The notes under the pieces: generated by a model
Told to the model about the DNA's origin: nothing
Seen by the model: only the letters and a program-made list of their open reading frames with translations
Database searches by the model: none
Assembly (NCBI GenBank): GCA_948943595.1
Contig: CARBBL010000001.1
Span: 1-52,438, forward strand
Direction of reading: 5' to 3'
Source of the DNA: an uncultured Lachnospiraceae bacterium
GTDB taxonomy: Bacteria; Bacillota; Clostridia; Lachnospirales; Lachnospiraceae
Length of the DNA stretch: 52,438 nucleotides
Shown: positions 8,101 through 8,196 of the stretch, piece by piece
How positions within the stretch are numbered: the first letter of the stretch is position 1
How the letters are laid out: each line of letters opens with the position of its first letter
Made by a program: the position numbers and the translations under genes

Positions 8101-8116
8101 TGTTTCACGTGAAACA
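8101..8116. promoter_or_regulatory. parS: parS site 1 (perfect TGTTTCACGTGAAACA)
   Basis: It matches the 16-bp ParB-binding palindrome consensus exactly and lies about 500 bp upstream of parA. Confidence 0.85.
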
Positions 8117-8180
8117 TTTTTAACAGGAATAAAATATTTTTACTTTCATATAATTTCATTTCATAGTATTAAAAAAGTAA

Positions 8181-8196
8181 TGTTTCACGTGAAACA
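8181..8196. promoter_or_regulatory. parS: parS site 2 (perfect TGTTTCACGTGAAACA), 80 bp from site 1
   Basis: It is an identical 16-mer, in the flanking context aatgtttcacgtgaaacatttt. Confidence 0.85.

Follow-up and report, generated by a model that had tools for sequence, protein, structure and literature searches.

The window analysed here, a 52,438-bp stretch of DNA from an uncultured Lachnospiraceae bacterium, carries parA (soj) and parB (spo0J) in one operon on the minus strand, directly downstream of a pair of short palindromes (Table 1). A 16-mer search of the whole window returned TGTTTCACGTGAAACA exactly twice, at positions 80 bp apart from start to start and with 64 bp in between, in agreement with the first-pass annotation, which had reported two perfect parS sites at this spacing. 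When up to three mismatches were allowed the pair remained the only parS matches in the 52,438 bp, against 0.29 expected from shuffled sequences, so that no degenerate copies accompany them. A hand estimate from the ~37% GC composition puts the expectation of a perfect match at ~2e-5 per window for one site. Searching the window for half-sites (GTGAAACA) gave two isolated occurrences, at 31148 and 33775, which were not significant.

The same annotation had placed the sites about 500-600 bp upstream of parA in a gene-free region, and both statements held. Counted from the likely parA start, ATG 7596, which is preceded by AGGAGG 7 nt upstream and is favoured by alignments of relatives that begin at residue 7, the sites lie at 505-600 bp; counted from the start given in the ORF list, an in-frame ATG further upstream at 7614, they lie at 487-582 bp. 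The surrounding intergenic region spans ~2.2 kb, its longest ORF is at most 63 aa, and it shows no likeness to relatives except at parS. The 64-bp spacer between the sites is AT-rich and has no internal repeat. A recent local duplication was considered as the origin of the pair and rejected, the identity between the two sites spanning 25 nt only (24/25) and the spacer not being repeated; the 25-nt identity is attributable to the family-wide AA/TT flank preference described below together with the AT-rich DNA.

Table 1. Coordinates of features in the 52,438-bp window (position 1 is its first nucleotide).
Feature	Position	Strand	Remarks
parB/spo0J	5914-6822	-	ParB_N, HTH_ParB and ParB_C; GERRWRA at residues 92-98
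parA/soj	6832-7596	-	deviant Walker-A ATPase, KGGVGKT; Pfam AAA_31/CbiA/ParA matches
ORF-free stretch 1	7615-9809		~2.2 kb; holds both parS sites
candidate parA promoter, extended -10 TGATATAAT	7682-7690	-	putative, from sequence and upstream comparison
inverted repeat ATATCAC-N8-GTGATAT	7685-7706	-	overlaps the putative extended -10
128-nt hairpin repeat, copy 1	7740-7867		separates the parS pair from the parA promoter
second candidate promoter, TTGACT-15 nt-TGCTATAAT	7967-7993	-	putative, read from the sequence; not conserved
parS site 1, TGTTTCACGTGAAACA	8101-8116	.	core of a perfect 24-bp palindrome, 8097-8120
TATAAT	8149-8154	+	between the parS sites
parS site 2, TGTTTCACGTGAAACA	8181-8196	.	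core of a perfect 20-bp palindrome, 8179-8198
ORF-free stretch 2	10563-12771		~2.2 kb
rsmG	20060-20803	-	upstream of parS, along with a LuxR-type response regulator
chemotaxis cluster	20971-28607	-	cheR, cheB, cheA, cheW, MCP, cheY-like
128-nt hairpin repeat, copy 2	21458-21585		between the cheY-like and MCP genes; opposite orientation to copy 1
mnmG	29142-31061	-	
821-aa protein	31178-33643	-	major-vault-protein 'shoulder' match PF11978, 74 bits
dispersed repeat copies	1046-1186, 8381-8632, 9038-9158, 11931-12143, 16390-16448, 31152-31172, 33662-33859, 38672-38843, 44366-44732, 47755-47984		

The encoded ParA is of the short, 254-aa type, with no N-terminal DNA-binding domain detected by Pfam. 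In the 302-aa ParB, alignment with the ParB structures of M. xanthus and T. thermophilus shows the CTP-binding/clamp motif GERRWRA to be intact. ParB scored above the cut-off of TIGR00180, the general ParB model, and below that of the Noc model, which nevertheless gave its top NCBIfam score (250 bits against a cut-off of 315). Among the 43 scanned ORFs of at least 100 aa, Pfam matched no second ParB-family protein.

Discrimination between parS and the Noc binding site (NBS) has been attributed to four residues of Caulobacter ParB (R173, T179, A184 and G201), of which R173 and G201 never vary among ParB orthologues while Noc carries Q/K/K/R, and RxxG variants are parS-specific (Jalal et al., PMC7383237). 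These positions were located in the window ParB by alignment to the Noc structures 6y93 and 7ng0 (B. subtilis, Geobacillus) and to the M. xanthus ParB structure. The Noc residues brought into register were Q158, K164, K169 and R186 (Q/K/K/R), numbered as in PMC7383237, which validates the residue mapping. At the four positions the window ParB has R164, S170, K175 and G192 (R/S/K/G), R164 and G192 corresponding to R173 and G201 of the Caulobacter protein. Judged from its sequence, it is an RxxG, parS-type protein. The first-pass annotation had allowed that the genome's ParB might read another parS variant; the parS-type residues R164 and G192 argue against this.

Conservation was assessed by a protein-guided scan that yielded 80 loci from species-representative genomes (L001-L080) and 80 from metagenomes; the counts that follow are restricted to loci whose ParB is at least 50% identical and whose upstream sequence extends for at least 1.2 kb (39 genome and 36 metagenome loci). 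The closest loci, 73-79% identical in ParB, belong to Lachnospiraceae and Acetatifactor-like MAGs, and the closest counterparts are up to 92% (ParA) and 78-79% (ParB) identical. Neither the genome nor the metagenome scan contained a ParB more than 79% identical, leaving the intergenic flanks unalignable, and a look-up of the exact ParB sequence returned no record. In the genome set, a perfect parS occurs at least once in the 1.2 kb upstream of parA at 35 of the 39 loci, and at least twice at 30, a density 41-fold that in the rest of the loci. The independent metagenome set gave the same picture, with at least one site at 35 of the 36 loci, at least two at 29, and a 65-fold density relative to the rest. 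Pooled, at least one perfect parS lies upstream of parA in 70/75 loci and at least two in 59/75. When the region 7615-9809 was compared by blastn with all 160 loci, matches were confined to the parS sites plus a few AT-rich bases beside them; the remainder being unalignable, the sites stand out as conserved islands.

The geometry of the sites is looser than their sequence. Spacing between neighbouring sites in relatives has its mode at 38-59 bp and ranges from 27 bp to >1 kb, with no helical periodicity seen among these loci; the 80 bp of the window falls outside the mode, in the tail of the close-pair class. From the proximal site to parA the gap is about 504 bp in the window, compared with a median of 100-132 bp in relatives, 13/70 of which have a gap of at least 450 bp. 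All 91 perfect sites tallied at the genome-scan loci share the identical 16-mer, and the base at -1 is A in 89% of them and that at +16 is T in 91%, with a weaker preference for A at -2 and T at +17. This preference makes the palindrome effectively 18-20 bp long across the Lachnospiraceae loci, and both window sites fit the AA/TT pattern (8099-8118 and 8179-8198). Blautia-like relatives (L011, L012 and L014) have arrays of 4-6 parS.

Comparison of the 150 nt upstream of parA showed that an extended -10 element, TG(A/C/T)TATAAT, recurs 60-130 nt before the parA start in most close relatives. Its counterpart in the window marks a candidate parA promoter from which the parS sites are ~410-510 bp distant. 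A second candidate promoter lies ~110-130 bp downstream of parS site 1 and points to parA. One copy of a 128-nt hairpin repeat sits between these two candidates and may partly explain the unusually long parS-parA gap. The TATAAT that had been noted between the sites is indeed present, on the plus strand, but is not promoter-like: neither a usable -35 nor a TG motif accompanies it, and the promoter scan reported nothing between the two parS sites. The accompanying suggestion that ParB at the sites could influence a local promoter was not borne out, the conserved parA promoter lying ~410 bp from the nearer site. Given the 410-510 bp to the conserved -10 and the lack of a scanned promoter between the sites, a direct operator role of the pair in the window appears unlikely. 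Separately, the inverted repeat that overlaps the putative extended -10 has a similar counterpart (6/7) in L002 and is absent from L003; it may be an operator or a chance occurrence.

Profile matches identified, downstream of parB, a DUF4446 gene, an HD-GYP-like gene, serS and a DUF3881 gene. The order mnmG-rsmG-(histidine kinase)-LuxR regulator-parS-parA-parB-DUF4446-(HD-GYP)-serS-DUF3881 was found in dozens of relatives, and in L084, which has a long upstream flank, jag and mnmE stand just ahead of mnmG-rsmG. Such genes form the classical oriC-adjacent set of Firmicutes, as in B. subtilis. In the window this order is broken or bordered by at least 41 kb of non-ancestral genes: the 8.3-kb chemotaxis cluster (20.9-28.6 kb), a lineage-specific insertion, splits mnmG from rsmG; ~11.7 kb of lineage-specific DNA (8.2-20 kb), made up of non-coding DNA and accessory genes for ogt, an ADP-ribosylglycohydrolase, DUF4300, GNAT, an FMN reductase and a lipoprotein, separates the LuxR regulator from parS-parA; and mnmE and jag have given way, on the right-hand side of mnmG, to unrelated genes over at least 21 kb. 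Despite the ~11.7-kb insertion parS stayed beside parA, and the insertions fall outside the parS-parAB unit. The slot that mnmE holds in relatives is occupied by the gene for the 821-aa protein with the vault-protein match.

The pair had also been taken to anchor the window as origin-proximal, a claim that is supported indirectly. The presence of mnmG, rsmG, parA, parB and serS speaks for it, and the window may reasonably, if indirectly, be regarded as origin-proximal from this ancestral synteny. Its genes do not, however, include dnaA, rpmH or mnmE; DnaA boxes in the window number 17 against 17.1 expected, none of them perfect, and the GC skew does not change sign across it. The skew is negative over the first ~28 kb and flat beyond, and together with the minus-strand genes this suggests replication from right to left, which would place the origin past the right end of the window, >44 kb from the parS sites.

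We conclude with high confidence that the two palindromes are functional chromosomal parS, the ParB loading sites of a ParABS/SMC system, a reading based on the sequence of the sites, the cognate genes, the specificity residues of ParB and the conservation across relatives. The 16-mer is identical to the core of a parS duplex used in ParB biochemistry, GGATGTTTCACGTGAAACATCC (PMC7053999), and both sites match the inverted-repeat consensus TGTTNCACGTGAAACA at 16/16 positions. The 22-bp parS duplex used with Caulobacter ParB has the same A/T flanks (PMC7053999). The original identification of the 16-mer as the ParB/Spo0J palindrome is thus upheld by the identity to the duplex core, by parAB next door, by the ParB residues and by conservation.

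By analogy with characterized systems, each parS would be occupied by a dimer of ParB, whose gene lies 1.3 kb off. CTP binding would close the parS-bound ParB into a clamp, as in its homologues (PMC7053999, PMC7333895), and the clamp would slide onto flanking DNA, leaving parS open to another dimer. In this way ParB would come to coat parAB together with the non-coding DNA next to it, with sliding clamps still passing over both candidate parA promoters, and the ParB-DNA complex would both stimulate the ParA ATPase, moving the region, and recruit or load SMC. Two sites 80 bp apart would act as independent, redundant loading points that could be occupied simultaneously and would raise the loading rate.

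A role that need not exclude loading is that of an operator, mainly or additionally, at which bound or spreading ParB tunes the parAB promoter or a divergent one. The proximal parS of many relatives is found only 19-200 bp from the start of parA, in or near the conserved TGnTATAAT, and L003 has a parS-like site ~45 nt upstream of the -10; in the window two candidate promoters face parA from the parS side. Such regulation would resemble that of plasmid par operons and of the promoters beside parS3 and parS4 in P. aeruginosa, where ParB is reported to repress promoters that adjoin parS (PMC5521831). The window sites, however, neither overlap nor abut a par promoter, lying ~410-510 bp from TGATATAAT with no scanned promoter between them, and the 254-aa ParA is of the type without an N-terminal DNA-binding domain. 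Among relatives, spacing and distance vary freely, from 27 bp to >1000 bp, which fits poorly with a fixed operator geometry. Spreading of Spo0J in B. subtilis has little effect on transcription, and this too counts against a regulatory role, which we regard as unlikely, though worth keeping in mind.

The remaining accounts are far less probable. That ParB is not the ligand, and that another ParB-family protein (Noc-like) or another CACGTG-recognising factor binds the sites, gains something from the top NCBIfam score of the Noc model, albeit one below its cut-off. The Noc site is ATTTCCCGGGAAAT (PMC7053999), and the window 16-mer differs from it; the window ParB has R and G, rather than Q and R, at the specificity-switching positions and is not a Q/K/K/R protein; it is encoded downstream of parA, like Spo0J; and the ORFs scanned offer no second family member. 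We therefore consider this reading highly improbable. It is scarcely credible that the palindromes are RNA or DNA hairpins, acting as bidirectional terminators or processing sites, instead of protein-binding sites: with their A and T runs they do fold (-8.8 and -6.9 kcal/mol), but the stems are AT-rich and weak, so that neither palindrome combines a GC-rich stem with a T-run, and the terminator scan passes over both in favour of a GC-rich terminator at 8381-8399. A structural role would, moreover, permit compensatory changes, yet 91/91 sites keep the identical 16-mer. Surroundings rich in lineage-specific insertions and dispersed repeats could point to a parS-parAB unit delivered by an integrated plasmid or mobile element in place of the chromosome's own partition system. 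Against this, parA-parB-DUF4446-(HD-GYP)-serS-DUF3881 and mnmG-rsmG are syntenic in dozens of Lachnospiraceae, with counterparts up to 92% (ParA) and 78% (ParB) identical, and the insertions lie outside parS-parAB, making such an origin most improbable.

As chromosomal parS, the window sites agree with those of the Spo0J/ParB systems of Bacillus subtilis, Caulobacter crescentus and Thermus in presenting the full palindromic consensus, in clustering beside parAB and in the ParB domains, CTP motif and specificity residues of the cognate protein. In B. subtilis the parAB-associated site is inside spo0J, whereas the window pair is intergenic, upstream of parA, with none in parB; Lachnospiraceae loci in general depart from B. 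subtilis by carrying at least two perfect parS in the intergenic DNA ahead of parA, and from Spo0J-type parS by the lineage-wide A at -1 and T at +16 that lengthen the palindrome to 18-20 bp. Several sites near the par operon are also found in Streptomyces coelicolor, Myxococcus xanthus, Corynebacterium glutamicum and P. aeruginosa (parS1-4), the clustered arrays of those phyla comprising high-affinity sites within a few kb that are presumed redundant; unlike these arrays, the window has only two sites in 52 kb, and they are very close (80 bp). The NBS of Firmicutes is likewise a 16-bp palindrome for a ParB-family protein, but it has its own sequence, ATTTCCCGGGAAAT, and is scattered round the chromosome, avoiding the terminus; the window ParB, unlike Noc, does not have the Noc specificity residues. 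With plasmid par operons the locus shares the order parS-parA-parB, and autoregulation is possible where the sites of relatives abut the promoter; the window, by contrast, presents the canonical chromosomal parS in a chromosomal, syntenic setting, with the conserved promoter hundreds of bp away.

The element itself is thus a textbook one, its sequence being the consensus, and our findings leave the current understanding of ParABS unchanged. What is new is the genome in which it lies and the family-wide occurrence of tandem perfect sites upstream of parA; a limited literature search found no paper describing the latter as a family pattern. The sites would mark the partition and SMC-loading locus of an uncharacterized Lachnospiraceae genome, providing a target for ParB ChIP and a landmark for orienting the assembly. 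A modest general point is that perfect parS are kept in at least two copies upstream of parA while the nearby intergenic DNA diverges completely. One could speculate further, at long odds in our estimation, that Lachnospiraceae share a centromere design in which at least two perfect parS, extended to 18-20 bp (AATGTTTCACGTGAAACATT) and placed directly upstream of parA, would serve at once as the main platform for ParB/SMC loading and as an operator of parAB that senses dosage, the window being a variant whose insertions, including the 128-nt hairpin repeat, uncoupled the sites from the promoter.

Other arrangements were observed among the scanned loci. In L084 a small ORF with a FakA-like middle domain (8642-9184) lies between the parS pair and parA, a feature of the clade L083-L087, L148 and L154; this clade also has two extra half-sites (GTGAAACA) after the parS pair. 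In other Clostridia variant parS were seen: in L071 (Ruminococcus sp.) TGTTCCACGTGGAACA occurs 12 times within 10 kb (406-10223), L041 has five copies of TGTTTCACATGAAACA between parA and parB (5016-5704), and multiple copies of TGTTTCATGTGAAACA and TGTTTCTCGTGAAACA occur in L019 and L045 (C. thermobutyricum), respectively.

The locus is also surrounded by repeats. The two copies of the 128-nt element are 97.7% identical, and the element folds as a long hairpin (-41.6 kcal/mol, z = -6.6). No RNA gene was detected in the gene-free region by an Rfam match at the gathering score. A weak match to Clostridiales-1 at 7750-7857 (30.5 bits, gathering score 48) was rejected as a family assignment: the second copy, though 97.7% identical, failed to give it and hit just generic hairpin (miRNA) Rfam models. 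The element thus resembles a small hairpin of a mobile or repeated kind more than any known RNA family.

A further family of modular intergenic repeats, with units of ~65-85 nt that contain CTCCCATCTGCC…GCAGGCGTACAAATCAGGATGGTGAAAT, is dispersed across the window. Units often adjoin a terminator-like hairpin, AAGTCTGCWWGCAGACTT, most copies lie just downstream of minus-strand genes, and at 44.4-44.7 kb they are arranged in tandem. Rfam offered no match to this family, and none of the 80 genome-scan loci contains it; a REP/BOX-like element of the source lineage is one possible identity.
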